Shown here piece by piece: positions 2,845 through 39,951 of a DNA stretch of 64,000 bases; the first letter of the stretch is position 1, and every line of letters begins with the position of its first letter. The DNA is from an uncultured Candidatus Saccharibacteria bacterium (GTDB lineage: Bacteria; Patescibacteriota; Minisyncoccia; Phycocordibacterales; UBA9973). The notes beneath the pieces are model-generated. The model worked only from the letters and a program-made list of their open reading frames with translations. It searched no databases and was not told the DNA's origin. The position numbers were made by a program, and so were the translations under genes. Where the stretch lies: NCBI GenBank assembly GCA_964484005.1, contig CAZADR010000002.1, positions 10,318-74,317 of the forward strand. Reading direction: 5' to 3'.

Positions 2845-3474
2845 TTAATCATGCTTTATGAGAAAGCTGACATCTTTCATTATACCTCTTTTCTTGAAAA
2901 GAAGTATAAGAATTATTATTAAATCAGAAACTAACATATAAATAGGGTAGACAAGGATTGCAAAAGTAAACCTTTCTACAGCAAACATGTTTAAGCTGTC
3001 TGCAAGCCCAGTACCAAACCAAGCCCAAAAATCTTCTCCTTCTGGGCGAAGATATGATTTTTTGATTGTTGGAATTATTGCAAAAGAATCTATGGCAAGG
3101 TTTGTGACGAGAGCAATCACAGGATTGTTGAATATAATCCAAAGAAGTACGCTTGCGAATGCTCCAAAAAGACAAAGTAGGTCAGTTTTATCCTCTAAAC
3201 TTCCTTCTCCATATTTTATAGAAAGAATTGCTATGCTTAATGGACCCAAGAATTCAACATAGGGAACCCAAATAGTATTTTCAGCTCCAGAAAAATGATA
3301 ACTTAAAGCCATTACCAAACCCATAAAAGACCAAATCCACCAAGTGGCTCTGTTTGGTTTAGTATTGCCCTTTATTATTGAAATTATATAAACGATGTAG
3401 GCTAAAAAGGCGATGATGCCTGCGATGAGTCCCAGAACAACCCTTATGTCTGTAAAATCAAGATTGAATATCAC
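2845..3474 (-). CDS. Hypothetical integral membrane protein
   Basis: 209-aa ORF with several hydrophobic helices; no motif recognised. Confidence 0.45.
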   Translation of the reverse strand: MIFNLDFTDIRVVLGLIAGIIAFLAYIVYIISIIKGNTKPNRATWWIWSFMGLVMALSYHFSGAENTIWVPYVEFLGPLSIAILSIKYGEGSLEDKTDLLCLFGAFASVLLWIIFNNPVIALVTNLAIDSFAIIPTIKKSYLRPEGEDFWAWFGTGLADSLNMFAVERFTFAILVYPIYMLVSDLIIILILLFKKRGIMKDVSFLIKHD

Positions 3475-3513
3475 TGTGATATTGTAACATATTTTGATAA
3501 TTTAACAGTAAAA

Positions 3514-3622
3514 CCTTGCTTTTTAGGTTTGTTTGTGGTATACTTCCAACAAATAGCAGTTCTCTGACTTTTCAATATTCACAAAACAAACGCAACACAA
3601 AAAACATCCAAAGGAGGATGCC
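3514..3622 (+). promoter_or_regulatory. Conserved promoter plus 5-prime leader, copy A (TTGCTT-N17-TGgTATACT, long UTR ending AAGGAGGATGCCATG)
   Basis: -35 TTGCTT at 3516-3521, 17-bp spacer, extended -10 TGGTATACT at 3536-3544, SD AGGAGG 7 nt before the ATG at 3623. Near-identical copies lie at 32370-32477 and 34445-34562. Confidence 0.6.
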
Positions 3623-4405
3623 ATGAGAAAGTATTTTGTTTTCTTTGTAGTTTCACTTCTTCTGGTGGCATTCTCGATGAATGCCGACCGCCGTCGCCCC
3701 GTGCGAATCGGCTCGTCAGACTCGGTGGAGGCAATCATTGCCGTCATCTATCTGGACAAGGATGGACTTCTTGTTCAGGAAGGTGATCCTTGGCATTATT
3801 GCTGGGTGTCAATGCAGTCGATGAGGCCGTTGACCTCGGGTACGACCTTCACCTACTCGGTGCAAAAACCTGGTGCAAATGAAGGTGATTTCACCTTCAT
3901 CAGATCCAACACGGTTCAACTGCATGAGGCAGGGTTTTACACTTCGTCCAGAATATATTTCAAGGACGGGTTCTATGATACCCTTTCTGACGGAAACCGT
4001 CAGGATTGGTTGCCTGGGATCGCTGTGTTCAGGGCGGAGATCCAACCTCTCAAAGGGGTGAAGACTTCGGTCATCCATAAAATACCGGTTCGTCTCGATG
4101 AACTCAGGGTGCCTCTTGGGCCCTTACAGCAGGCCATCGTCTCAGTAGATGGTAGAAGTGTCATGCTTCTGGGAGTTTTTTCAACACCTCCTTCTGCAAT
4201 GCTTTTTCATTTTTACTCCGATGGTACATGGATGAGTAATCCCGTTGGAGTCTCTCAAAACCAGTTTGTGGTTCCAGGTGGGATGTATGGTCATGGATCT
4301 CCACTGACAGTGATGTCGGGATATCCAGATGCAGAGTGCTCTACTGTGCAGGTGGACATTCCGGATACCTCCAAGAATAAGTTGTTTCGTGAAGAAGTTG
4401 AATAG
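3623..4405 (+). CDS. Secreted hypothetical protein, GC-rich, paralog of 34563..35255
   Basis: Signal peptide MRKYFVFFVVSLLLVAFSMNA followed by DRRRPVR. Shares its N-terminus and C-terminal motif (C-S/Q-T-x-Q-V-DIP) with 34563..35255. GC content is clearly above the surroundings. Confidence 0.65.
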   Translation: MRKYFVFFVVSLLLVAFSMNADRRRPVRIGSSDSVEAIIAVIYLDKDGLLVQEGDPWHYCWVSMQSMRPLTSGTTFTYSVQKPGANEGDFTFIRSNTVQLHEAGFYTSSRIYFKDGFYDTLSDGNRQDWLPGIAVFRAEIQPLKGVKTSVIHKIPVRLDELRVPLGPLQQAIVSVDGRSVMLLGVFSTPPSAMLFHFYSDGTWMSNPVGVSQNQFVVPGGMYGHGSPLTVMSGYPDAECSTVQVDIPDTSKNKLFREEVE

Positions 4406-4428
4406 AACCGAAAGGTTCGAAGATAAAC

Positions 4429-4458
4429 CAGCCCCGCGCAAGCGCGGGGCTTTTTTAT
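4429..4458 (+). terminator. Rho-independent terminator
   Basis: GCCCCGCGC-AAGC-GCGGGGC stem followed by TTTTTTATTT. Confidence 0.7.
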
Positions 4459-4517
4459 TTCTAAATTTCTCATTTTATATATTCTGTGGATAACTTTTTT
4501 TTACTTGTTTTTTTATT

Positions 4518-7370
4518 TTGTTGTATAATTTACAGCATATGATAACTACATTAAAAAGCAGGTTTTTATTATTAATATTTGTTTTTTCTTTTGTAACTTT
4601 TTTAGGAATTTCCGACAAGGCCAACGCTATGGTTGATTCTAGTGGAAATATTTTTTGTGCTAGAGAAAGTTATTGGGAATTAAACAAGACGGGTGCTGTT
4701 ACTGGAACTGGAGATGAGGGGAGTGGTTATACTACTTTAGTGCCACTACATTCTTCTTCGGATACTAGCTATGATACTATTAGCCCTTTTACGGCTGGCG
4801 CCACTCTCACATATCATCGTCGCTGGGTTGGGACTGAGCCAATATCACCAAGTACTTGGAATAGTTCTTGGACTACAGAAACCTGTACCACGGGTCCACT
4901 AGATGGAAATAAATGCTCTGTGAGTGTCAGTGGTGGTTTTTACCTTAATCCCGCATACAGCGGTGGAGGTCAGGCATATGATATTTATGGTGAGCCTGCA
5001 TGTATAGAAGATGGATATGCTGGTGTTGCTTATAGTTCACCAAATAGGATAAGTGCAGGATATACTGTAAATGCAACTGTTTCCGGGGTTGGGGGATCAC
5101 CTACACCTCTTTCTCAGTCAGTAGCTGCTAACGGCACCACAAAATTTACCTTAACTCCAAGTTCTTCTTATATTGTAAATAAAGATGATGTTACTAAAAA
5201 TTCTACTGGTTGTAATTTAGGAAACGAGGCAACCGCATGGTCTGGAAACGAGTACACTACTGGTACGATTAATGCTAATTGTACTTACACTTTTTCTTTT
5301 ACAGCTATTCCTGCTGTTACTGCTTCTTGTTCCGTCTCAAGTCCGGTGGCATCTGGGGTAAATCCAAGCATTACTTTTACCACAAATTCAAGTTCAAACA
5401 ATTGTTATGTTCGTAACGACAATATTGCCTTTGGTTTTTCTCCTCAACCTGGAACAGGAGTTTCTTCTTCCGGAACAGTCTATCAGCCTGGAGTTCAGAC
5501 AGCGGGCTCTCACCAAGGCTCAATATATTGTCAAAATTCAGCCAATACAGCAAATAGTGGCTGGCAATATTGTCCGTATACAGTGAGTGCACCAGCTATT
5601 CCCGCTACTCCCACAGGTCTTACCGCTACAGCAAGCTCCTGTGGAACTGGAACGATAAATGTATCTTGGAGTGCATCTGCTGGTGCAACAAGTTACACCC
5701 TTAAAGATGGAGCTACTGTTATTTATTCTGGAGCTTCTACTTCTTATTCTCATATTGGTCTAGTTGCAGGTTCTAGTCATAGTTACACTGTTTCTGCTTC
5801 AAACGCTGCGGGTTCATCAGCATATTCAGCTGCTGTTTCAAGAACTGCTCCAGCAGCTTGTGCTCCAACCGACGCTTGTGGTAATGGTAGTAGCTCTTTT
5901 CCTAGATTAACTGAACCGACAACTAATCCAACTGCTTGTAATCCAGGAGTGTATGCAAACTCTCCAGCTGATACCACCACCTTGGGCGCTCAAGCTTGGA
6001 ATTGGTCTTGTGGCACGGTCACTTCCTGTTCTGCTCCCAAATATGGCTGTAGAGTAACGACTGACTCAAATTATAGTCTTCCTCAATATGGACCAACTGG
6101 ACCAAACAACAATTATGGTTGCGCTGGTACTTGTGCAAACGGGGGAACAGATTATTCTACCTGTACACCTCCAGTTGGTATGTCTGGAACCTTGACCACT
6201 CCTAGCTGTACGATTGCTTCCGGGTCCAGCACTTGTACCACGACTGTCTCTTGGACAGTAACTAATCCTGTAGTAGTCGGCGGCTCTTCAGTCACTTCTT
6301 CATATCCTAGTGCTGGTACAGTCGTCGCTCCTCCAGTCAGTACTGGAACTGCAGATTCAGGTACAAAAACAGGTGTAACTATTCCATATAGTTCCAGGAC
6401 TTTCTATCTTTACAACAACAATGTTCAATTAAATACAGGCACAGCTAACGCTACCTGCGCTACAGGTTCAGCCTGGAACGGAACCATCTGTTATACAGCA
6501 CCCGCTCTTCCTGATTTGACAGCCGCTTCTACTACTCCTTCTACTGCTGTAAAAAATGAAGCCAAAACTTTTTCTTCAATCGTTACAAACATTGGAGCTG
6601 CAGATACTGGTGCATCTTTCTCAAACTTCTTTCAAGTGTGTAATGTAGGAGGAGGATGTGCAACTCCAACAGATCTAGCTCCTACTACCATGACAGCTTT
6701 GGCTGGTGGAGCGACCGGTACGGCCACCAAAGATTACACCTTTACCTCTGTCGGAACATTTTCTGTTCGAGCTTGTGCAGACAAGACAAACTCTGCTTCT
6801 CTTGGTGTAATTAACGAAGGGACCATGGAAGGCAACAACTGTGGAAATTGGGCTAATGTTACTGTTTCCGATACCCCAACTCCACCTTCCAATGAAGCCC
6901 CCGTCATCACCATCTGGGCTACTCCAACTTCTGGTACCGTGAATATTGTCAAACCTACTATTCTCTGGAGTGTCGACAATGATCCGACATCTTGTGCGGC
7001 AAGTGAAGACTGGTTAGGTAGTCGAAATTACAGTGGAGCTCAAACTCAAGAACCAGCCTTAAATCAAATTAAAACTTACCGTTACACATTAATCTGCTCC
7101 AATGCTTATGGTAGTGATGAAGCTACTGCTACGGTCGCAGTGTCTGGAACTGCCTCTGGAGTAAGTATTAGTGTAAATCCTACCTCCATCTATGCTGGAG
7201 ATTCAGCCACTCTCACTTGGTCAGGCGCAGGAGCTTGTACTTATAACTTTGATACTGGTTCTAATATTGTAACTCCAAATACGACCACTACTTACACTCT
7301 TACTTGTGATGGTGTATCTTCTAGTGCTACATTGATAGTGAAGAAGAAACCGATATTTATTGAGGATTAG
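4518..7370 (+). CDS. Large secreted Cys/Thr/Ser/Gly-rich surface protein (likely start 4539, MITTLKSRFLLL signal peptide)
   Basis: Signal peptide, low-complexity T/S/G/C-rich composition, and an extended -10 TGTTGTATAAT upstream. The C-terminal ~460 aa are identical to the product of 35386..38112. Confidence 0.7.
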   Translation: MLYNLQHMITTLKSRFLLLIFVFSFVTFLGISDKANAMVDSSGNIFCARESYWELNKTGAVTGTGDEGSGYTTLVPLHSSSDTSYDTISPFTAGATLTYHRRWVGTEPISPSTWNSSWTTETCTTGPLDGNKCSVSVSGGFYLNPAYSGGGQAYDIYGEPACIEDGYAGVAYSSPNRISAGYTVNATVSGVGGSPTPLSQSVAANGTTKFTLTPSSSYIVNKDDVTKNSTGCNLGNEATAWSGNEYTTGTINANCTYTFSFTAIPAVTASCSVSSPVASGVNPSITFTTNSSSNNCYVRNDNIAFGFSPQPGTGVSSSGTVYQPGVQTAGSHQGSIYCQNSANTANSGWQYCPYTVSAPAIPATPTGLTATASSCGTGTINVSWSASAGATSYTLKDGATVIYSGASTSYSHIGLVAGSSHSYTVSASNAAGSSAYSAAVSRTAPAACAPTDACGNGSSSFPRLTEPTTNPTACNPGVYANSPADTTTLGAQAWNWSCGTVTSCSAPKYGCRVTTDSNYSLPQYGPTGPNNNYGCAGTCANGGTDYSTCTPPVGMSGTLTTPSCTIASGSSTCTTTVSWTVTNPVVVGGSSVTSSYPSAGTVVAPPVSTGTADSGTKTGVTIPYSSRTFYLYNNNVQLNTGTANATCATGSAWNGTICYTAPALPDLTAASTTPSTAVKNEAKTFSSIVTNIGAADTGASFSNFFQVCNVGGGCATPTDLAPTTMTALAGGATGTATKDYTFTSVGTFSVRACADKTNSASLGVINEGTMEGNNCGNWANVTVSDTPTPPSNEAPVITIWATPTSGTVNIVKPTILWSVDNDPTSCAASEDWLGSRNYSGAQTQEPALNQIKTYRYTLICSNAYGSDEATATVAVSGTASGVSISVNPTSIYAGDSATLTWSGAGACTYNFDTGSNIVTPNTTTTYTLTCDGVSSSATLIVKKKPIFIED

Positions 7371-29942: not shown

Positions 29943-30221
29943 TTACCCTGTTAAATATGATTTGAGCCGATTTCGCAAAAACTGTTTTCCGTATGTTGTC
30001 TTTAGATATTCTTCACGATGCATTGCATCATGTTTATCTAAACAAGCTTCGGAATAAATCAGTTCTAATGGCCTTCGATCTTTTGTTGAACTAACTTGAC
30101 CTTTGCAATGTTGCTCAAATCTAGATTTCAAATCATTCGTATATCCGACATATAGTTTTTTGTCTTTTTGGGACTTTAAAACATATATGTAGTAAAACTT
30201 TTTTATTTGATTTGAAATCAT
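29943..30221 (-). CDS. Small GIY-YIG nuclease-family protein
   Basis: YYIYVLKS..KLYVGYTNDLKSRFEQH is a GIY-YIG domain; 92 aa; divergent paralog of 19892..20146. Confidence 0.7.
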   Translation of the reverse strand: MISNQIKKFYYIYVLKSQKDKKLYVGYTNDLKSRFEQHCKGQVSSTKDRRPLELIYSEACLDKHDAMHREEYLKTTYGKQFLRNRLKSYLTG

Positions 30222-31372: not shown

Positions 31373-31606
31373 CTAACGAGAAATCCAGGTATTTGTCGGA
31401 ATACCAGATTGTAATATTATACCTTTCATTGTTCTTGGCTTAATAGACAAACTACCGTGCCTGGGAACACAAACTTGTTTCATGATTTTATTTATATGAC
31501 CCACATAATAGTAGTGACTTCCTTTTATATAATTTAAACGAAAGTTGTGTTCTTTTAGAAAAGTTTCTACATCTCTAAATGTCCAATTGAGAATACCTCT
31601 TGGCAT
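31373..31606 (-). CDS. hicA: HicA-family mRNA interferase toxin
   Basis: FLKEHNFRLNYIKGSHYYY...VPRHG..L...MKGIILQSGI matches the HicA pattern (KGSH motif); 77 aa. Confidence 0.6.
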   Translation of the reverse strand: MPRGILNWTFRDVETFLKEHNFRLNYIKGSHYYYVGHINKIMKQVCVPRHGSLSIKPRTMKGIILQSGIPTNTWISR

Positions 31607-31612
31607 ATGTTG

Positions 31613-31939
31613 TTATATATTAACGACTCCATAATATCGTATTTCATCATATGGAGATTTGATAGGCTTCTTGCTCTCTATCAATTTTTTCCAAAGCTTT
31701 TCGTATTCTTCGTCTGCTTTTTGATTTAAAGGTGAAACTCGAGAACCTTTTATTTTAGCTTGAGATTCTACATAACCTTGAATAGCTTCCAATAGATTAT
31801 TTTGTGCGACATAAGCATCATCGGAAGATTCTACAATATTAAATTCCAGAGCCACAGCATACCATGTGTCTTTTTCTCTAAAAACTATAGTTCTAACTGA
31901 GCCTTTTTGTATTGTATTCATACAATGACATGGTACCAC
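31613..31939 (-). CDS. hicB: HicB-like antitoxin (UPF0150 fold); probable start at internal Met (31921)
   Basis: FREKDTWYAVALEFNIVESSDDAYVAQNNLLEAIQGYVE resembles the HicB N-domain; ends 7 nt before hicA. Confidence 0.45.
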   Translation of the reverse strand: MVPCHCMNTIQKGSVRTIVFREKDTWYAVALEFNIVESSDDAYVAQNNLLEAIQGYVESQAKIKGSRVSPLNQKADEEYEKLWKKLIESKKPIKSPYDEIRYYGVVNI

Positions 31940-32022: not shown

Positions 32023-32340
32023 CCCCCACACCTTTCGTTTTATACCCTTAAATCATATAATGGCTGTTATGTATTACATGTATGTTCTAAAAAGTCTTAA
32101 AGATGAGAAATTATATATTGGTTCTACTGATGATTTAAGGCGAAGACTTTCGGAACACAACAAGGGACTTAATCGTTCAACTAAAGCAAGACGTCCATTT
32201 GAACTTCGTTACTATGAGGCTTGTGCTGACGAACGTGATGCTAGAACAAGGGAATATAATTTAAAAAAAGATGGAAAAGCGCTTGGGCAACTTAAACGAA
32301 GAATCTCCGAAAGTCTTAAATAAAACAAAAGGTGTGGGGG
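32023..32340. mobile_element. Miniature GIY-YIG element (second copy of 19848..20163 type)
   Basis: IR CCCCCACACCTTT at 32023-32035 and AAAGGTGTGGGGG at 32328-32340, both with TTAT immediately outside; encloses a near-identical GIY-YIG ORF. Confidence 0.5.
32060..32323 (+). CDS. Small GIY-YIG nuclease-family protein
   Basis: Product nearly identical to 19892..20146 (MYYMYVLKSLKDEKLYIGSTDDLRRRLSEHN...); the track ORF 31907 start is too early and the real start is 32060 or 32069. Confidence 0.7.
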   Translation: MAVMYYMYVLKSLKDEKLYIGSTDDLRRRLSEHNKGLNRSTKARRPFELRYYEACADERDARTREYNLKKDGKALGQLKRRISESLK

Positions 32341-32369
32341 TTATTCACAGGATGTTCACAGTTCACTTG

Positions 32370-32477
32370 CCTTGCTTTTTGAGTTTATTTGTGGTATACT
32401 TTAGGTGATAGAGTAGCTCTTCGACAACTTTTCACTAAACAAACAATAAACAAAAATGACATTCAAAGGAGGATGCC
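32370..32477 (+). promoter_or_regulatory. Conserved promoter plus 5-prime leader, copy B
   Basis: TTGCTT (32372-32377), 17-bp spacer, TGGTATACT (32392-32400), leader ending AAAGGAGGATGCCATG at the rSAM start. Confidence 0.6.
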
Positions 32478-33575
32478 ATGAAAGTTGTTCCGACCACTGC
32501 TTGGCTAACAGTAAATAGATCCTGCAATTTTCGTTGTAGCTGGTGTTACGCAAAAAGTGATGTATTTGACAACAAAGATACATTAACAATGGAGCTCGCA
32601 TTAAGACTCCTGACAATTATTAAAGAAATGGGAATCAGTCACATTACATTGATTGGTGGTGAGCCCACGCTTTGGAAATATTTAATGGATTTTAATACCA
32701 ATTGTCGTGAAATGGGTATTAAATCCTCGTTGGTAACAAATGCTTATCGTTTTGGTGATGATAATTTTTGGAGTCAGTATATCAAAAACCCGAACGACAA
32801 AGTAAGTGTTTCCCTTAAGGCTTTTGATAATAAGTCAGCAATGGAATTTGTCGGAATAAATAACTTTGAATTAATGACAACTGGAATAAAGAGAGCCATT
32901 TCCGAGTTTAATAGTGGGGTTTCTTTTCTTTGTAATTCATTTGCTAATGGTAACCTAATGTCATTGGCGAGAGTTGCTCACGAATGTGGAGCTCGTAGCA
33001 TAGCTATTAGTCCGTGCACACCATCTTTTTCCAAAGAAGGTGTCGATATTGTGGGGATGCTTGAATCAGGAGAATTAGTTGCAAGTTTCACCTCTGAATA
33101 CGAAGAGATGAGTAATCTTTTTGGAAATAGATTAACTTTTGCAATAAAAACTCCGCTATGTATTTGGCCGCGGAATTTTATTGAAAAGCTGATAACAAGA
33201 AAACAGCTACGAGCAACATGCCAACTCCAACATCGATCAGGGATTATATTTGATCCAAAGGGTCAAGTGTCAGCTTGTAATAGTTTAGCCAATTTTCCGA
33301 TTGGAATAATTGACAAAAACTACAATAATGCTGAATCCCTGATTCAAATTTTGAATAGTGATAATGTGGTTAGAGTTTATAATCACATTAATTCTTATCC
33401 TTCGGAAGTCTGTATTAATTGCCCCGACAACTCAATTTGTCGTGGCGGTTGTCCTTTAATGTGGTCAGTCTATGACCCTAAAAAACATATTCCAGGTTGG
33501 AATATGGGAGAAAAACAGAAAGGAGGTGATAAAAATGGACAAGCTGCTGGAGCTCATCTCGGTAACCGGGATTGA
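32478..33575 (+). CDS. Radical SAM enzyme with C-terminal SPASM domain (candidate peptide maturase)
   Basis: CNFRCSWCY (CX3CX2C) at residues 16-24 and C-terminal CINCPDNSICRGGCP (CX2CX5CX3C SPASM signature); 365 aa. Confidence 0.8.
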   Translation: MKVVPTTAWLTVNRSCNFRCSWCYAKSDVFDNKDTLTMELALRLLTIIKEMGISHITLIGGEPTLWKYLMDFNTNCREMGIKSSLVTNAYRFGDDNFWSQYIKNPNDKVSVSLKAFDNKSAMEFVGINNFELMTTGIKRAISEFNSGVSFLCNSFANGNLMSLARVAHECGARSIAISPCTPSFSKEGVDIVGMLESGELVASFTSEYEEMSNLFGNRLTFAIKTPLCIWPRNFIEKLITRKQLRATCQLQHRSGIIFDPKGQVSACNSLANFPIGIIDKNYNNAESLIQILNSDNVVRVYNHINSYPSEVCINCPDNSICRGGCPLMWSVYDPKKHIPGWNMGEKQKGGDKNGQAAGAHLGNRD

Positions 33576-33687
33576 GAGATCCGACGTGGGTCGCGAGTTG
33601 TTTTTGTATTCAGGAGACTGTGATTGTTCTCCTGATACAGATGACTGCTCAAACCCCAACGACTGCGACTGCGACTGCGCGCCGTAA
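33535..33687 (+). CDS. 50-aa Cys/Asp-rich peptide (candidate RiPP precursor, SCIFF/ranthipeptide-like)
   Basis: ATG at 33535 preceded by AGGAGGTGA; overlaps the rSAM 3-prime end by 41 nt. Product MDKLLELISVTGIERSDVGRELFLYSGDCDCSPDTDDCSNPNDCDCDCAP has 6 Cys, all in the last 23 residues, each adjacent to Asp. GC-rich. Confidence 0.55.
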   Translation: MDKLLELISVTGIERSDVGRELFLYSGDCDCSPDTDDCSNPNDCDCDCAP

Positions 33688-33738
33688 GTAGAATCGTCCC
33701 CCATAACAACTTATCGTTATGGGGGACATTTATATAAA

Positions 33739-34380
33739 ATGAATAAAATAAAATTTTCAATTAAATATTCAAAAGAACTTGAGATTCAACGGGTTTTGTC
33801 TACTAAGAAAAAACTTAAATGGTATTTTGATAATGGTTATAATTTAAACAATTCGGCTTTACCTAAATATATAAGCATAAAAGAATTGGATAAAGCTCCC
33901 AAGGGTGAGCTAATTAAATACATAAATGAAGAATATACTCCAAAGCTTTTTCAATTAAACAAAAAAGAAATCAGTTTTCTTTTACCAGATTACTTGAATA
34001 AATTAGAAGATTATTTTTCTAAAATAAACGTAAAACCAATTTTAAACATAAGAATCATACTCACAAAATACGGAACTGCTGGAAGTTATATTGTTCCAAA
34101 TATTATTGTGATTAATGTTTCAAATTTTTTTAGTATTGGATTAATAAGAAATATTTTACATGAAATAATTCATTTGCATATTCAAGATTTAATAAATAAA
34201 TATGAAATAAAACAATGGGAGAAAGAAATAATCGTCGATAGTGTTTTTGAAAAGTTTTCAGCTTCTCTTTTTAAGAGACAAAATTATCCAATAAATGCAT
34301 TTGAAATTCAAAAAATCTTTAATGAAAGTTATCCAAATATTGAGTTAATTATTTCAAGAATTTTAAAAATAAGACTGTAA
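33739..34380 (+). CDS. Hypothetical protein with HExxH motif (candidate metallopeptidase)
   Basis: NILHEIIHLH contains HEIIH; 213 aa; directly downstream of the peptide ORF. Confidence 0.4.
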   Translation: MNKIKFSIKYSKELEIQRVLSTKKKLKWYFDNGYNLNNSALPKYISIKELDKAPKGELIKYINEEYTPKLFQLNKKEISFLLPDYLNKLEDYFSKINVKPILNIRIILTKYGTAGSYIVPNIIVINVSNFFSIGLIRNILHEIIHLHIQDLINKYEIKQWEKEIIVDSVFEKFSASLFKRQNYPINAFEIQKIFNESYPNIELIISRILKIRL

Positions 34381-34444
34381 GTATATTCTCCTAAAAACTT
34401 AAAAAATCAAGGTTTTTCAGGCTTTTCCGCCAGCTATACACACT

Positions 34445-34562
34445 TTGCTTGACTTGCTTTTTGAGTTTGTTTGTGGTATATTTACCCCAAAGAAGCACAG
34501 TTCTCTGACTTTTCAATATTCACTAAACGAACACAACACAAATTCATCCGAAGGAGGATGCC
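34445..34562 (+). promoter_or_regulatory. Conserved promoter plus 5-prime leader, copy C
   Basis: TTGCTT (34454-34459), 17-bp spacer, TGGTATATT (34474-34482); CAGTTCTCTGACTTTTCAATATTCAC..AAC.CAACAC block shared with copy A; ends GAAGGAGGATGCCATG. Confidence 0.6.
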
Positions 34563-35255
34563 ATGCGCAAATTCGTAATGTATTTTCTTGTCGCAGTATT
34601 TCTGTGCTCGGCATTCTCTCTGAGTGCCGACAGACGACGTCCCGCGCGTAGCGGAATGCAACCGACATTTCTCACCAAGCAGACTTCTCTGTCTGTGGTG
34701 GGACCCAACGAGAAAGGGGAATACAGTGCGCCTTTTGTGGCCTGGTTCCCGGTTTCAAATGGAACAACGGTAAGTAGTTATACCGTGGATGTTAATGGTA
34801 ACAAAACTCCAATTGTGGGCGCGTCTTTCACTGTCACCGCGGAAAATGCCGATCACGGTTGGGCAATGCAACTCTGGGGACCTTTTACTGGCGGATATGC
34901 GCCAATTCCCACGAGTAGTGGTATTGTTGCTTTCCGCGTGGAATTCACGGGAAATTTCCAGACTTACAGTGTCAACGCAAGGGTTCCGGATGGAACACGT
35001 GCTACTGCTGTGGTAGATGTCTACCCCGACGGGAAGCTCTTCCTCAAGCAGTCTTACGCTGTTCTTCCGGTCGCTAGCCTCAACGGTCGAGGCCATCCTG
35101 TGGTAAATGGTTGGATCACTCCGACTCAGTATTATACTGGATCGGATGTGGTTGTTGCTGTTTGCTCCGGATTTCCGGACTCGCAGTGTCAGACCCAGGT
35201 GGTCGACATTCCGGCTCCTCAGACCAACGCAGGAAAAACGTTTAGTTTCGAATAA
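34563..35255 (+). CDS. Secreted hypothetical protein, GC-rich, paralog of 3623..4405
   Basis: Signal peptide MRKFVMYFLVAVFLCSAFSLSA followed by DRRRPAR; C-terminal GFPDSQCQTQVVDIPAP matches GYPDAECSTVQVDIPDT of the paralog. Confidence 0.65.
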   Translation: MRKFVMYFLVAVFLCSAFSLSADRRRPARSGMQPTFLTKQTSLSVVGPNEKGEYSAPFVAWFPVSNGTTVSSYTVDVNGNKTPIVGASFTVTAENADHGWAMQLWGPFTGGYAPIPTSSGIVAFRVEFTGNFQTYSVNARVPDGTRATAVVDVYPDGKLFLKQSYAVLPVASLNGRGHPVVNGWITPTQYYTGSDVVVAVCSGFPDSQCQTQVVDIPAPQTNAGKTFSFE

Positions 35256-35290
35256 GAAGTCAAACTCGAATCGGTAAAACGATTCATAAC

Positions 35291-35320
35291 TTGCCCCGCA
35301 CTTGTGCGGGGCTTTTTTAT
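35291..35320 (+). terminator. Rho-independent terminator
   Basis: GCCCCGCA-CTTG-TGCGGGGC followed by TTTTTTATTT; homologous to the 4429-4458 terminator. Confidence 0.7.
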
Positions 35321-35385
35321 TTGTAAACATTTTGTGTTGATAACTTTCTTCACTTACTTTTTATTTTGCTGTATAATTAAAATCT

Positions 35386-38112
35386 ATGAAATCTATTATA
35401 AAAGGCAGATTTTTATTATTAATTTTTGTTTTATCATTTTTATCATTATTTGGTTTCTCTAGTCAGGCTCAGGCATTGACCATGGCACCAGATTTTAGTG
35501 TGACTTCTTTTACTTTATCTGCAGATCAAAACACTATTACTTTTACAGCAGATGGAAATTCTGGATATTTATATTCTAGTTGTGGTGCTGATGTTTTAGA
35601 GCCTCATTATGAAGGTGGTCCTTATACTTATACTCCTTATGCTATGTCTAGCGGAACTATTTCTGCAGGTTCTGTCTCAGGGACAATATCTTCTGGGGAA
35701 ATTGCAAAGTTAACTAATGGACAAACGGGCACACCTTGCGATGACCCAGCCAGGTCTTCCCCAACAGGCAATGTTGTTCCCGGTACTCCAGGAACTTTTA
35801 CAGTAACAAACAAAACCCTTAATGTTTCTAGTTTGGCCAATGGTTCATACACTCTTTCTGTTTCACTTTGTGCGACTGCCGGAGTATGTAGTGTTGCTAC
35901 TAGGGCTTTTACTATAAATAATAGAGTAACTAGTTTTAATGTTACAGCAACTGCCGGTACTGGTGGTTCCGTTTCTTCTCCTTGTTCTGTGGCGAGCGGA
36001 AATACTTCCGCAACATGTAGTAATATTAATGCTTTGTCTGGGTATTCTTTAACTCAAGCTGTAGAATTTACTCCTTCTAATTGTGCCACTGGGGGCTCTT
36101 TTTCTGGAAATGCATATACTACAGGAAATGTTAATGTTAATAATTGTAATGTAAAATTTAACTTTGCTCCTGTAGGCACAGTTTCCGGCTATCATGACGG
36201 AGCTTCAGGCACAGTTGCTTCTACTTCCTGTAACGCAAATGGCTGGGCAGCTTTTTCAACACTACCAGGAACAGACTTAACAATAGGAATAATAAGTGAT
36301 GGGGTAGCAGTGTACTATGGTCCTGCTGGGGAGTATAGAGGAGACCTGACAGGACAGTGCACAAGTGGAACTTGTGCATATAATGTGGACTTGAGTAGTC
36401 GTATTTCTTCTGGAGTAAATCACTCAATCACTGTTCAAGCTCAAAATCCTAATACTTCGGCTTGGGTGACTCTAGGTGGAAGTCCAAAGACATTAAATTG
36501 TACAGCAGTACCTCCACCACCTTGTGGAAATGGTGCCAATAATCCTCCAACTTGTACTACCTGTACTTCACCCCTTGTTTGGAACGGTAGCTCGTGTGTA
36601 GCACCTTCAACCGATGCTTGTGGTACTTATAGCGGTATTACCCCTAGACTCACTGAACCAACCACAAATCCTACTGCATGTAACCCAGGCACATATGCAA
36701 ACTCTCCAGCGGACACCGCTACTCTCGGTGCTCAAGCTTGGAATTGGTCTTGTGGCACGGTCACTTCCTGTTCTGCTCCCAAATATGGCTGTAGAGTAAC
36801 GACTGACTCAAATTATAGTCTTCCTCAATATGGACCAACTGGACCAAACAACAATTATGGTTGCGCTGGTACTTGTGCAAACGGGGGAACAGATTATTCT
36901 ACCTGTACACCTCCAGTTGGTATGTCTGGAACCTTGACCACTCCTAGCTGTACGATTGCTTCCGGGTCCAGCACTTGTACCACGACTGTCTCTTGGACAG
37001 TAACTAATCCTGTAGTAGTCGGCGGCTCTTCAGTCACTTCTTCATATCCTAGTGCTGGTACAGTCGTCGCTCCTCCAGTCAGTACTGGAACTGCAGATTC
37101 AGGTACAAAAACAGGTGTAACTATTCCATATAGTTCCAGGACTTTCTATCTTTACAACAACAATGTTCAATTAAATACAGGCACAGCTAACGCTACCTGC
37201 GCTACAGGTTCAGCCTGGAACGGAACCATCTGTTATACAGCACCCGCTCTTCCTGATTTGACAGCCGCTTCTACTACTCCTTCTACTGCTGTAAAAAATG
37301 AAGCCAAAACTTTTTCTTCAATCGTTACAAACATTGGAGCTGCAGATACTGGTGCATCTTTCTCAAACTTCTTTCAAGTGTGTAATGTAGGAGGAGGATG
37401 TGCAACTCCAACAGATCTAGCTCCTACTACCATGACAGCTTTGGCTGGTGGAGCGACCGGTACGGCCACCAAAGATTACACCTTTACCTCTGTCGGAACA
37501 TTTTCTGTTCGAGCTTGTGCAGACAAGACAAACTCTGCTTCTCTTGGTGTAATTAACGAAGGGACCATGGAAGGCAACAACTGTGGAAATTGGGCTAATG
37601 TTACTGTTTCCGATACCCCAACTCCACCTTCCAATGAAGCCCCCGTCATCACCATCTGGGCTACTCCAACTTCTGGTACCGTGAATATTGTCAAACCTAC
37701 TATTCTCTGGAGTGTCGACAATGATCCGACATCTTGTGCGGCAAGTGAAGACTGGTTAGGTAGTCGAAATTACAGTGGAGCTCAAACTCAAGAACCAGCC
37801 TTAAATCAAATTAAAACTTACCGTTACACATTAATCTGCTCCAATGCTTATGGTAGTGATGAAGCTACTGCTACGGTCGCAGTGTCTGGAACTGCCTCTG
37901 GAGTAAGTATTAGTGTAAATCCTACCTCCATCTATGCTGGAGATTCAGCCACTCTCACTTGGTCAGGCGCAGGAGCTTGTACTTATAACTTTGATACTGG
38001 TTCTAATATTGTAACTCCAAATACGACCACTACTTACACTCTTACTTGTGATGGTGTATCTTCTAGTGCTACATTGATAGTGAAGAAGAAACCGATATTT
38101 ATTGAGGATTAG
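35386..38112 (+). CDS. Large secreted Cys/Thr/Ser/Gly-rich surface protein (paralog of 4518..7370)
   Basis: Signal peptide MKSIIKGRFLLLIFVLSFLSLFGFSSQAQA, divergent N-terminal ~450 aa, C-terminal ~460 aa identical to the paralog; extended -10 TGCTGTATAAT upstream. Confidence 0.7.
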   Translation: MKSIIKGRFLLLIFVLSFLSLFGFSSQAQALTMAPDFSVTSFTLSADQNTITFTADGNSGYLYSSCGADVLEPHYEGGPYTYTPYAMSSGTISAGSVSGTISSGEIAKLTNGQTGTPCDDPARSSPTGNVVPGTPGTFTVTNKTLNVSSLANGSYTLSVSLCATAGVCSVATRAFTINNRVTSFNVTATAGTGGSVSSPCSVASGNTSATCSNINALSGYSLTQAVEFTPSNCATGGSFSGNAYTTGNVNVNNCNVKFNFAPVGTVSGYHDGASGTVASTSCNANGWAAFSTLPGTDLTIGIISDGVAVYYGPAGEYRGDLTGQCTSGTCAYNVDLSSRISSGVNHSITVQAQNPNTSAWVTLGGSPKTLNCTAVPPPPCGNGANNPPTCTTCTSPLVWNGSSCVAPSTDACGTYSGITPRLTEPTTNPTACNPGTYANSPADTATLGAQAWNWSCGTVTSCSAPKYGCRVTTDSNYSLPQYGPTGPNNNYGCAGTCANGGTDYSTCTPPVGMSGTLTTPSCTIASGSSTCTTTVSWTVTNPVVVGGSSVTSSYPSAGTVVAPPVSTGTADSGTKTGVTIPYSSRTFYLYNNNVQLNTGTANATCATGSAWNGTICYTAPALPDLTAASTTPSTAVKNEAKTFSSIVTNIGAADTGASFSNFFQVCNVGGGCATPTDLAPTTMTALAGGATGTATKDYTFTSVGTFSVRACADKTNSASLGVINEGTMEGNNCGNWANVTVSDTPTPPSNEAPVITIWATPTSGTVNIVKPTILWSVDNDPTSCAASEDWLGSRNYSGAQTQEPALNQIKTYRYTLICSNAYGSDEATATVAVSGTASGVSISVNPTSIYAGDSATLTWSGAGACTYNFDTGSNIVTPNTTTTYTLTCDGVSSSATLIVKKKPIFIED

Positions 38113-38190: not shown

Positions 38191-39951
38191 ATGCAAATAA
38201 ACGAAGAACAGCTAAAGAAGTCTATTTTAGAATCTGGTCTCGTCTCTAAAACAGATTTTGAAGAAGCGCTAAAAAAAGCTGAAGAAAAAAAACAAAAAGT
38301 TGGAAATATTTTAATTTCTGAAGGAAAAATATCAGAAACAGACCTAAAACAAATGGAAGCTTTTGTTTTGGGTATTCCTTTCATTAATCTAAATAATGAA
38401 AAGATAGATGCCGCTGTTCTTTCATTGATTCCTGAGCCAATCGCCCGAAATGACAATATTGTCGCTTACAAAAAGACAGACAACAGTCTAGAAGTGGCAA
38501 TGCTCGATGTGGATGATTTGCCAGTTATTGATTTTATAAAAAAACGTTCTGGTTTAAAAATTTTACCTCGTTTGACAGATACTTCTTCCATCAAATCTGT
38601 GCTCGTCCAATATCGCCAGAGCCTAAAGGCGGAATTTCAAGATATCATTAAAAAAGAATCCGATTCGTTGGGGGATTCAATCGACGAAGAGGGAGATAAG
38701 CCTCACGAAAAATCGGAAAATGAATTGAAAGAAATGGCAGAAGATTTGCCAGTGGTAAAGATAGTAGATTCTCTTGTCTTTCATGCTATTTTACAAAATG
38801 CTTCAGACATCCATATCGAGCCAGGGGAGAAAAACCTCACCGTGCGTTACCGTATCGACGGTATCTTGCACGATGCGATGGTGCTCGATAAAAATGCTGG
38901 TCTTGGTATCACTGCGCGTATAAAAGTTTTGACCAATTTAAAACTTGATGAAAAAAGATTGCCCCAAGATGGTAGATTTAAAATAGAACAAAATGGAGAA
39001 AAGATTTCTTTTCGTGTTTCCACCTTGCCTACTTTCTTTGGAGAAAAAACAGTTATCAGAATCTTGAAAGAAAATTCTCACGGTTTTTCTTTGGAGACCC
39101 TTGGTTTTCACGGAGAAGGACTTGAGCTTATACATAACTCAATGAAATTAAAAACAGGTATGGTGCTTGCTACTGGTCCGACTGGAAGTGGAAAGACAAC
39201 GACCCTTTATACCATGTTAGATATTTTAAATAGACCTGAAGTAAATATTTCTACCGTTGAAGATCCGATAGAATATCAAATGCCGAGAGTAAACCAGACT
39301 CAAGTTAAACCAGAAATTGGATTAACTTTTGCCAATGGACTTCGTTCTCTCCTCCGACAAGATCCAGATATCGTGATGGTGGGGGAGATTCGTGACGGAG
39401 AGACGGCAGGTCTCGCCATTAATGCTTCTCTCACAGGGCACTTGGTATTGTCTACTATCCATACCAACTCAGCCGCAGGTGCCATCCCTAGACTTATAGA
39501 TATGGGAGTAGAGCCTTTTCTTATTACCGCTACCGTCAAGACAATCATTGCCCAGAGGCTCGTTCGTCGTCTTACTGAAAAAAAAGAAAAATATTTTTTA
39601 TCATCAGCTGAGATAAAAAATCTTGGAAAAATTGTAGACATAGACAGAGTGCTTACTTTCTTAAAAACAGAAAAAATAATATCAGATGACAGTACAATTG
39701 AAAAAATTCCGTTTTATAAAGCGATAAAAAATGGTGAATTTGAAGATGGGTATTCCGGTCGCATAGGTATGCATGAAGTATTAAAGGTAACATCATCTAT
39801 TAGAGAAATGATTTTAAAAGGAAGTTCTCAGGACGAGGTAGAGGCACAGGCTAAAAAAGAAGGGATGCTCACCATGCTCGAAGATGGAGTATTTCAATCC
39901 GTTTTAGGGGTGACGACACTAGAAGAAGTGTTTCGTGTGGTTTCTGAATAA
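38191..39951 (+). CDS. pilB: Type IV pilus assembly ATPase PilB / GspE family
   Basis: GspE N-terminal domain, Walker A GPTGSGKTTTLYTML, Asp box and His box regions; 586 aa. Confidence 0.85.
   Translation: MQINEEQLKKSILESGLVSKTDFEEALKKAEEKKQKVGNILISEGKISETDLKQMEAFVLGIPFINLNNEKIDAAVLSLIPEPIARNDNIVAYKKTDNSLEVAMLDVDDLPVIDFIKKRSGLKILPRLTDTSSIKSVLVQYRQSLKAEFQDIIKKESDSLGDSIDEEGDKPHEKSENELKEMAEDLPVVKIVDSLVFHAILQNASDIHIEPGEKNLTVRYRIDGILHDAMVLDKNAGLGITARIKVLTNLKLDEKRLPQDGRFKIEQNGEKISFRVSTLPTFFGEKTVIRILKENSHGFSLETLGFHGEGLELIHNSMKLKTGMVLATGPTGSGKTTTLYTMLDILNRPEVNISTVEDPIEYQMPRVNQTQVKPEIGLTFANGLRSLLRQDPDIVMVGEIRDGETAGLAINASLTGHLVLSTIHTNSAAGAIPRLIDMGVEPFLITATVKTIIAQRLVRRLTEKKEKYFLSSAEIKNLGKIVDIDRVLTFLKTEKIISDDSTIEKIPFYKAIKNGEFEDGYSGRIGMHEVLKVTSSIREMILKGSSQDEVEAQAKKEGMLTMLEDGVFQSVLGVTTLEEVFRVVSE

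Follow-up and report, generated by a model that had tools for sequence, protein, structure and literature searches.

A candidate RiPP cassette in Patescibacteria combining a compact radical-SAM/SPASM enzyme, a CxC/Asp-rich peptide and a zincin-like HExxH protein

The nearest named maturase to the system considered here is PapB, the radical-SAM/SPASM enzyme of the freyrasin pathway of peptides made by the ribosome and modified post-translationally (RiPPs), which joins the sulfur of Cys to the β-carbon of Asp by a thioether and tolerates Cys-Asp spacings of 0-6 (PMC9413430). Three further systems invite comparison: 1) SCIFF peptides and their maturases (TIGR03973/TIGR03974; CteB, Tte1186), in which a short precursor of ~45-50 aa with six Cys in its C-terminal half is encoded beside a SPASM enzyme; 2) anaerobic sulfatase maturases (anSME; TIGR03942; PDB 4K36-4K39), SPASM enzymes of compact architecture without the RiPP recognition element (RRE), which oxidize a Cys in a peptide segment to formylglycine; 3) the α-ketoglutarate (α-KG)-dependent HExxH enzymes ChlH, BpmH and PflC/PosC (IPR026337), which hydroxylate Asp in RiPPs (PMC12636437). 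Here we analyze a 64-kb stretch of DNA from an uncultured Candidatus Saccharibacteria bacterium (hereafter the window; from contig CAZADR010000002.1 of assembly GCA_964484005.1), in whose positions all coordinates are given, and which encodes a radical-SAM/SPASM enzyme followed by a Cys/Asp-rich peptide and a HExxH protein (Table 1). The reading that we prefer, with moderate confidence, is that these three genes constitute a self-contained RiPP cassette, in which a leader would guide thioether crosslinking of a CxC/Asp-rich core and would then be removed by the HExxH protein. A preliminary description of the region, made from its sequence, had proposed that the region is a small RiPP locus whose maturase gene is followed downstream by that of the precursor; its statements on motifs, coordinates, ribosome-binding site, gene overlap and Cys/Asp count each stood up to re-examination, as did its statement that freyrasin-type ranthipeptides are reported to carry Cys-to-Asp crosslinks.

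The peptide gene carries much of the argument. Its 50-aa product (MDKLLELISVTGIERSDVGRELFLYSGDCDCSPDTDDCSNPNDCDCDCAP) contains exactly six Cys, each with an Asp beside it; no other open reading frame (ORF) of the window has a product whose last 30 residues hold six Cys and eight Asp. The ORF has a Shine-Dalgarno site of its own (AAGGAGGTGA) and shares 41 nt with the 3' end of the enzyme gene. A putative leader of about residues 1-27, starting MDKLLELISVTGI, precedes a Cys/Asp-rich core of about residues 28-50 (DCDCSPDTDDCSNPNDCDCDCAP), the boundary between the two being provisional. An alignment-based scan of a genome collection, using one genome per species, recovered 272 relatives, 80 of whose loci were fetched (labeled L001, L003 and so forth); exact peptide words of the window enzyme gave no match in the genome collection. 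Each of the three contexts fetched first has a small, uncalled ORF in the gap behind the enzyme gene, and this ORF encodes an orthologous peptide; clear orthologues are found in L001 (MDKLMNLISVTGIQRPNAGHELFLDSGDCDCSPDSDDCSNPDDCDCDCGA), L003 (MNKLTELMSVTGIERPEPRREAFRDSGDCSDQCSAPGDDCSTPDDCDCNCAPS), L009, L012, L013, L014, L016 and L077. The window gene and that of L001, the closest relative, differ at 20 synonymous and 14 non-synonymous positions, giving a ratio of non-synonymous to synonymous change (dN/dS) of 0.09, so that the reading frame is under purifying selection; in more distant pairs the synonymous sites are saturated. Conservation in relatives, which the preliminary description had named as a check on the peptide, is thus seen in both leader and core.

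Across the wider family, 64 of the 80 loci have, no more than 1.2 kb from the enzyme gene, a small ORF whose last 30 residues include four or more Cys, and about 55 of these ORFs are clear precursors by eye; such Cys-rich ORFs occur at 0.49 per kb near the enzyme versus 0.13 per kb in the far flanks. The leader conforms to the motif M-x-x-(L/F)-(L/I)-x-x-(L/F)-x-x-(T/S/N)-G-(I/V), or MxKLLxxLxxTGI in short form. CxC is present in 52 of 57 curated peptides; the residue between its two Cys is most often Asp (70 of 178), and after that N, K, A, R and Q. The number of Cys ranges from 4 to 8 in the orthologues and from 4 to 24 in the wider family (median 7), so that six Cys is not a conserved family trait. 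A linked small gene with a conserved leader, a variable core and signs of selection agrees with what is generally expected of a RiPP precursor, and by these comparisons we regard the 50-aa peptide as a real, conserved gene. It has nonetheless largely escaped annotation: the peptide matches no NCBIfam model at E ≤ 1, a single homologue is called as a protein among 5.8 billion protein clusters, and the window's peptide is absent from the public protein collection, in which its enzyme and HExxH protein are both found.

The same set of 5.8 billion clusters contains 259 homologues of the enzyme, the named ones mostly from metagenome-assembled genomes (MAGs) of Patescibacteria. The fetched loci likewise come mostly from Patescibacteria, including Saccharibacteria, Parcubacteria-type lineages, WWE3 and CPR2, with distant members in Firmicutes, Mollicutes, Myxococcales and others. 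Gene order varies among them: it is enzyme-HExxH-peptide in L016 and L077, the peptide gene is convergent in L023-L025 and L029, and in L070 both peptide and HExxH genes lie upstream of the enzyme. The linkage of the three genes survives these changes. In all relatives examined the genes on either side are different, so that conservation is confined to the cassette, which behaves as an independent and probably mobile unit. Together, the pairing of enzyme and Cys-rich ORF and the selection on the latter bear out the precursor-maturase arrangement first proposed for the window.

The enzyme contains the radical-SAM motif CNFRCSWC (C16-x3-C20-x2-C23) and the SPASM cysteines C248-x13-G-x4-C267 and C312-x2-C315-x5-C321-x3-C325 (CINCPDNSICRGGC), all of which, along with C228, are invariant in an alignment of 36 homologues. 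It matches Pfam Radical_SAM (PF04055; 59.7 bits, cutoff 29.5, E = 5.3e-16) and passes the NCBIfam SPASM model TIGR04085 (33 bits, cutoff 27), and scores below threshold with the Pfam SPASM model PF13186 (16 bits, cutoff 21.5). C228, C248, C267, C312, C315, C321 and C325 would suffice for two auxiliary clusters, and the cysteines predicted to hold three Fe-S clusters in total are thus invariant. Given that the CX3CX2C motif begins at residue 16, there is no room for an N-terminal RRE, and none is present. The AlphaFold2 (AF2) model has a mean confidence (pLDDT) of 89, with residues 346-365 disordered (pLDDT <50). Homologous enzymes stop at ...IPGW, ~24 residues before the end of the window enzyme, whose remaining tail is not conserved and is predicted to be disordered; the overlap with the peptide gene, which this tail brings about, is hence trivial. 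In a profile search of PDB sequences SuiB, CteB, PqqE and SkfB rank first, and in a Foldseek search with the model SuiB and anSME are closest (TM ~0.62), followed by BlsE, DesII, viperin, SkfB, CteB and PqqE. The overall architecture resembles the compact anSME type.

The third gene, which had only been mentioned before as a HExxH ORF following the peptide, proves to be a recurrent companion. A family hidden Markov model detects a HExxH member adjoining the enzyme in 32 of the 80 loci, and a second neighbor cluster of 19 loci, with HExxH in every member, is a remote homologue (hhalign probability 97.2%, E = 4e-11); the two united give a HExxH partner in 45 of the 80 loci. Judged from these neighborhoods, it is an integral, conserved partner in the cassette. 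The motif is HEIIH (H141-E142-x-x-H145); H141, E142, H145, G112 and Y117 are invariant in the family, and E163, 18 residues past H145 on the next helix, is nearly so, which in the model places it in a gluzincin-like geometry. That model (pLDDT 93.7) has the elements of a zincin-like fold, namely the HExxH on a predicted active-site helix, a third ligand on the following helix and a preceding mixed β-sheet. Specific to the family are a helical N-terminal region of ~100 residues and a TKYGxxGSYxxPN motif. The protein belongs to no Pfam or NCBIfam family, a few members showing weak SprT-like matches, and its profile finds no match among PDB sequences; structurally, the minimal zincin-like hydrolases YbeY (9.6), M1 aminopeptidase catalytic domain (about 9) and Wss1/SprT (Wss1 8.4) are closer to it than the α-KG-dependent HExxH enzymes, and no family threshold is reached. 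An exhaustive profile search returned 774 representative clusters, 452 of them at E ≤ 1e-10, and among the 150 matches listed nearly all are standalone proteins of ~200-230 aa. The single fusion observed in the family (P0237) has an uninformative N-terminal half. Thus Pfam and NCBIfam cover neither the precursor family nor the HExxH partner, and the genomic association of this HExxH family with a RiPP maturase is, as far as we found, new. We propose that the protein is most likely a leader peptidase.

Between the peptide and HExxH genes lies a hairpin with a 12-15 bp stem (ΔG -23.5 kcal/mol, z -4.3), which was also flagged by a terminator scan; its U-tract is weak (ATTTATAT). Equally strong hairpins of unrelated sequence follow the peptide stop codon in L001, L003, L009, L012, L013 and L014, and in five of these six the U-tract is clear. 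A hairpin after the structural gene is often seen in RiPP loci, and this one is probably a terminator or attenuator. In its presence, a single uniformly transcribed three-gene operon is not established.

The evidence described above bears on the genes, on how conserved and linked they are, on selection at the peptide, on Fe-S motifs and on a zincin-like fold. From it we infer, as follows, that the enzyme acts on the peptide, which crosslinks it makes and where, that the HExxH protein is a peptidase, and what biological role the product has. The precursor would be translated from its own strong ribosome-binding site, with the hairpin probably increasing the transcript of enzyme and peptide over that of the gene behind it. 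The amphipathic N-terminal leader, with its MxKLLxxLxxTGI pattern, would dock the precursor on the RRE-less enzyme, whose 5'-deoxyadenosyl radical chemistry and auxiliary Fe-S clusters may then crosslink the C-terminal CxC/Asp core. The likeliest product would have thioethers joining the Cys sulfur to a side-chain carbon of neighboring residues, in this clade the Asp β-carbon; as many as six could form, each lowering the mass by 2 Da. Finally, the conserved zincin-like protein would most likely cut off the leader. The Cys-to-Asp β-carbon thioether is favored because PapB is the nearest named maturase and makes such links, and because Asp flanks every Cys. No exporter or immunity gene is linked to the cassette in the 80 loci, nor is any other transporter or recurrent gene found with it; therefore the target could lie inside or outside the cell. 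The leader may be likened to double-glycine leaders (E-L-x-x-V-x-G), but neither a C39 peptidase nor an ABC transporter is linked.

The likeness to PapB extends over the full length of the enzyme: both maturases are ~330-350 aa, both cores are rich in Cys and Asp, and the PapB model (NF047865) matches 35 of the 36 family members from end to end (best E 2e-18), making it the most consistent named RiPP maturase model. At 38.8 bits for the window enzyme and ~64-72 bits for wider members against a cutoff of 340, however, these proteins do not belong to the PapB family. The system also differs from PapB/PapA in its core of CxC/DCDC runs rather than six CX3D repeats, in its leader, in its dedicated HExxH partner and in its mainly patescibacterial hosts. 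The SCIFF-like assignment of the preliminary description finds no support, although the window, too, has a short precursor with six Cys in its C-terminal half next to a SPASM enzyme, and CteB is among the nearest solved structures. The peptide matches no SCIFF model; TIGR03974 appears neither among the 20 families that the window enzyme matches at E ≤ 1e-8, nor among the 25 best of its 70 matches at E ≤ 1, nor among the 25 families with the most frequent matches in the 36 members; CteB has an N-terminal RRE of ~100 residues which the window enzyme lacks; and the Cys count, six in the 50 aa of the window peptide, varies in the family as described above. SCIFF peptides are, moreover, typical of Clostridia and are not known to be so of the candidate phyla radiation (CPR). 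We likewise reject identity with anSME, which shares a compact RRE-less architecture, similar length and a TM of ~0.62 over the whole chain. The preliminary description had held that a grouping with these maturases would speak against a RiPP locus; the TIGR03942 model gives 31.5 bits where its cutoff is 349, neither a C/SxPxR motif in the core nor a sulfatase gene in the neighborhood is found, and the cassette conserves instead a dedicated small precursor with a leader. We therefore describe the cassette, on the available comparisons, as a predicted ranthipeptide- or sactipeptide-like system that fails the tests for SCIFF, PapB and anSME.

Several observations weigh against the proposed crosslinking cassette. 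No curated maturase family is reached: the window enzyme, 35 close homologues and 9 distant family members all fall short of any equivalog cutoff, and generic MoaA and viperin models outscore PapB on the radical-SAM core. The RRE that the enzyme lacks is the leader-binding domain of most characterized thioether maturases, anSME is structurally as near as SuiB, and no exporter or immunity gene is linked. Furthermore, many cores in the family are poor in Asp or devoid of it (e.g. CKCRCANCKCNCYC), which implies that the acceptor residue varies, or that the chemistry differs or centers on Cys.

An unlikely variant of the same cassette would form sactionine links, from the Cys sulfur to the α-carbon of the acceptor, and hence yield a sactipeptide. 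The StsB sactipeptide maturase model indeed matches 34 of the 36 family members, SkfB/CteB-type enzymes are among the nearest structures, and SPASM thioether enzymes of both regiochemistries are homologous. However, the StsB match is confined to the N-terminal core (residues 8-113) while that to PapB is full length, and the enrichment of Asp beside Cys in the window clade parallels PapB substrates, in which side chains are the acceptors. QhpD substrates, too, have side-chain acceptors.

Another alternative concerns the HExxH protein, which could be an α-KG/Fe(II) tailoring oxygenase similar to ChlH, BpmH or PflC that hydroxylates Asp β-carbons. This would be compatible with the thioether cassette that we favor, and we consider it improbable. 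None of 29 HExxH family members matches a TIGR04267/IPR026337-type model or any other NCBIfam model, hydrolase-type zincins score higher in structural comparisons, and the Glu serving as third ligand in gluzincins is nearly invariant. The protein is also a smaller, standalone one (~210 aa), and HExxH partners accompany Asp-poor cores as well. Patescibacteria are generally considered fermentative, with limited oxygen and 2-oxoglutarate metabolism, which we count against an oxygenase.

It is quite unlikely, too, that the enzyme performs another radical reaction on the CxC core, such as formylglycine formation, epimerization or Cys-centered chemistry, yielding a metal-binding or redox-active, metallothionein-like intracellular peptide. 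The equally near and likewise RRE-less anSME, the CxC repeats with K, N, R or Q in many relatives, which we take to resemble metallothionein motifs, and the lack of a linked exporter or immunity gene would all fit such a product; against it stand the anSME model score, the absence of C/S-x-P-x-R from the core and of a sulfatase gene nearby, and the combination of a cleavable leader with a dedicated HExxH partner, for which a conventional RiPP pathway is the better fit. The idea that the 50-aa ORF arose by chance or is untranslated, the enzyme having a non-peptide or housekeeping substrate, could appeal to its being uncalled in public annotation and overlapping the enzyme gene, but is barely credible and effectively refuted by the orthologous ORFs with conserved motifs in most related loci, the dN/dS value, the strong ribosome-binding site, the conserved downstream hairpin and the linkage kept through gene-order changes, the overlap itself being due to the non-conserved, disordered tail of the enzyme.

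Table 1. Coordinates of the cassette and of other features of the window
Feature	Coordinates	Strand	Basis or remark
Promoter-like element, ~75-nt 5' leader and ribosome-binding site	32355..32477	+	consensus and repeat copies
-35 element, TTGCTT	32372..32377		17-nt spacer to -10 element
TATACT of extended -10 element, TGG-TATACT	32395..32400		
Shine-Dalgarno site of enzyme gene, AAGGAGG	32466..32472		
Radical-SAM/SPASM enzyme, 365 aa, putative peptide maturase	32478..33575	+	Pfam/NCBIfam matches
Shine-Dalgarno site of precursor gene, AAGGAGGTGA	33520..33529	+	read from sequence, 5 nt before ATG
Precursor peptide gene, 50 aa and stop	33535..33687	+	orthologues, dN/dS, leader motif
Stable hairpin just after peptide stop	33696..33727	+	folding energy and terminator scan
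HExxH protein, 213 aa, zincin-like fold	33739..34380	+	conserved motif and AF2 model
HEIIH codons (residues 141-145)	34159..34173		
Two small GIY-YIG ORFs and HicA toxin gene/putative HicB antitoxin	29943..30221, 32060..32323, 31373..31939	-, +, -	directly upstream of cassette
Copies of the upstream module	3516..3625, 32355..32480, 34440..34565	+	27-nt core at 3516, 32372 and 34454
ORFs preceded by the first and third module copies	3623..4405, 34563..35255		
Two paralogous secreted-protein cassettes	3623..7370, 34563..38112	+	each behind a module copy
PilB-type type IV pilus ATPase	38191..39951		after second secreted-protein cassette
Antisense ORF, 79 aa	33465..33704	-	rejected as a gene

Some observations on the precursors stand apart from the argument above. 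The antisense ORF opposite the peptide gene, rich in SQSQSQ, is a reverse-complement image of the GAC-TGC (Asp-Cys) repeats and not a gene; the same pattern recurs in relatives on the strand opposite the precursor and could be used as a signature for finding precursors. In L005, which is the same contig as L010 (Candidatus Vogelbacteria MAG GCA_043807405.1), a run of six C (5164..5169), one too many, splits an orthologous precursor at 5052..5217; read with C5 it continues ...HCDDCTTPNDCDCDCAPPHCGVS and fits the family consensus, so that either the assembly is in error or the frameshift is real. In this locus the enzyme gene also has an ATP-grasp gene (MvdD/RimK-like) immediately upstream, and downstream there are two paralogues of the HExxH gene. 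The precursors of L066 (4020..4319), L074 (3960..4271) and L088 (2643..2987), whose enzymes are distant relatives in Firmicutes/Mollicutes MAGs, are 100-115 aa long; they contain little besides CDC/CNC repeats, have as many as 24 Cys and represent the same core at its most extreme. In L047, from a Saccharimonas MAG, tandem precursor ORFs with similar leaders (3283..3468 and 3497..3649) accompany one enzyme gene; hence multi-precursor versions of the cassette exist.

The peptide gene is richer in GC than its neighbors, as previously remarked (0.53 versus 0.365 for the enzyme gene and 0.226 for the HExxH gene; window 0.367). Its GC content at third codon positions (GC3) is 0.65 versus 0.29-0.33 in ordinary genes of the window, that of the HExxH gene being 0.16. 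Among orthologues GC3 is 0.63 in L001 and 0.79 in L013, but 0.17-0.20 in L016 and L077. The high value in the window might stem from codon choice linked to expression, from mRNA structure or from transfer. The GIY-YIG ORFs and HicA/HicB genes beside the cassette suggest a variable or mobile stretch of the genome. A methyltransferase gene too lies upstream, and downstream follow a secreted 230-aa protein, a 908-aa CARDB-like protein and then the PilB-type ATPase.

Upstream of the enzyme gene is a module with -35 and extended -10 elements, a candidate promoter by consensus, which a simple promoter scan did not score. Its 27-nt core occurs three times in the window versus zero expected by chance, and the copies align over ~125 nt with ~76% identity through the ribosome-binding site and ATG (AAGGAGGATGCCATG). 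Besides the radical-SAM gene, they precede two paralogous secreted-protein cassettes. Each of these encodes first a small secreted protein (260 or 230 aa) and then one of 950 or 908 aa that matches CARDB weakly. The signal peptides of the two small proteins are alike and lead into ADRRRP(V/A)R, and the GC3 of their genes is unusually high (~0.5). In L001, L003 and L009 no copy of the module precedes the enzyme gene; it is therefore a genome-specific duplicated regulatory module and not a trait of the cassette, which rules out a shared promoter as a family feature. Thus, of the earlier proposal that the operon is driven by a leader common to the two secreted-protein cassettes, the shared leader is borne out, but it is peculiar to this genome, and a three-gene operon is uncertain in view of the hairpin. 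No Rfam family was detected in the window, nor specifically in the region of the upstream leader and the hairpin.

A full-text literature search found no description of this cassette, which is not proof that none exists. What appears to be new here, and widespread among CPR bacteria, is the combination of a predicted SPASM maturase lacking an RRE with precursors rich in CxC and Asp and a zincin-like partner. More tentatively, it might represent a large, essentially unannotated RiPP family of Patescibacteria/CPR, in which an RRE-less SPASM maturase acts with CxC-repeat precursors and a new zincin-like partner, and in which the acceptor varies among D, N, K and R and the chemistry perhaps differs from that of sactipeptides and ranthipeptides; we regard this as possible rather than likely. 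The compact RRE-less maturase and its extreme DCDC cores may prove useful for enzymology, where they could reveal which carbon the enzyme attacks and how, lacking an RRE, it reads the leader, and would also be attractive for peptide-stapling biocatalysis of the kind pursued with PapB.

Much of bacterial diversity belongs to the CPR/Patescibacteria, whose genomes are tiny and often recorded as lacking natural-product clusters. In one survey, the Patescibacteria MAGs contained no biosynthetic gene clusters (PMC11613949). With a single peptide homologue called among 5.8 billion clusters, the case shows the annotation of small ORFs to be the limiting step. If the large RiPP family suggested more tentatively above is real, the module that it shares with the secreted-protein cassettes near type IV pilus genes would tie its product to interaction of the episymbiont with its host, or else to the handling of metals or redox. 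A cassette retained in many CPR genomes, with precursors missed by gene callers and a partner without a family, would then point to a neglected peptide chemistry in these episymbionts.

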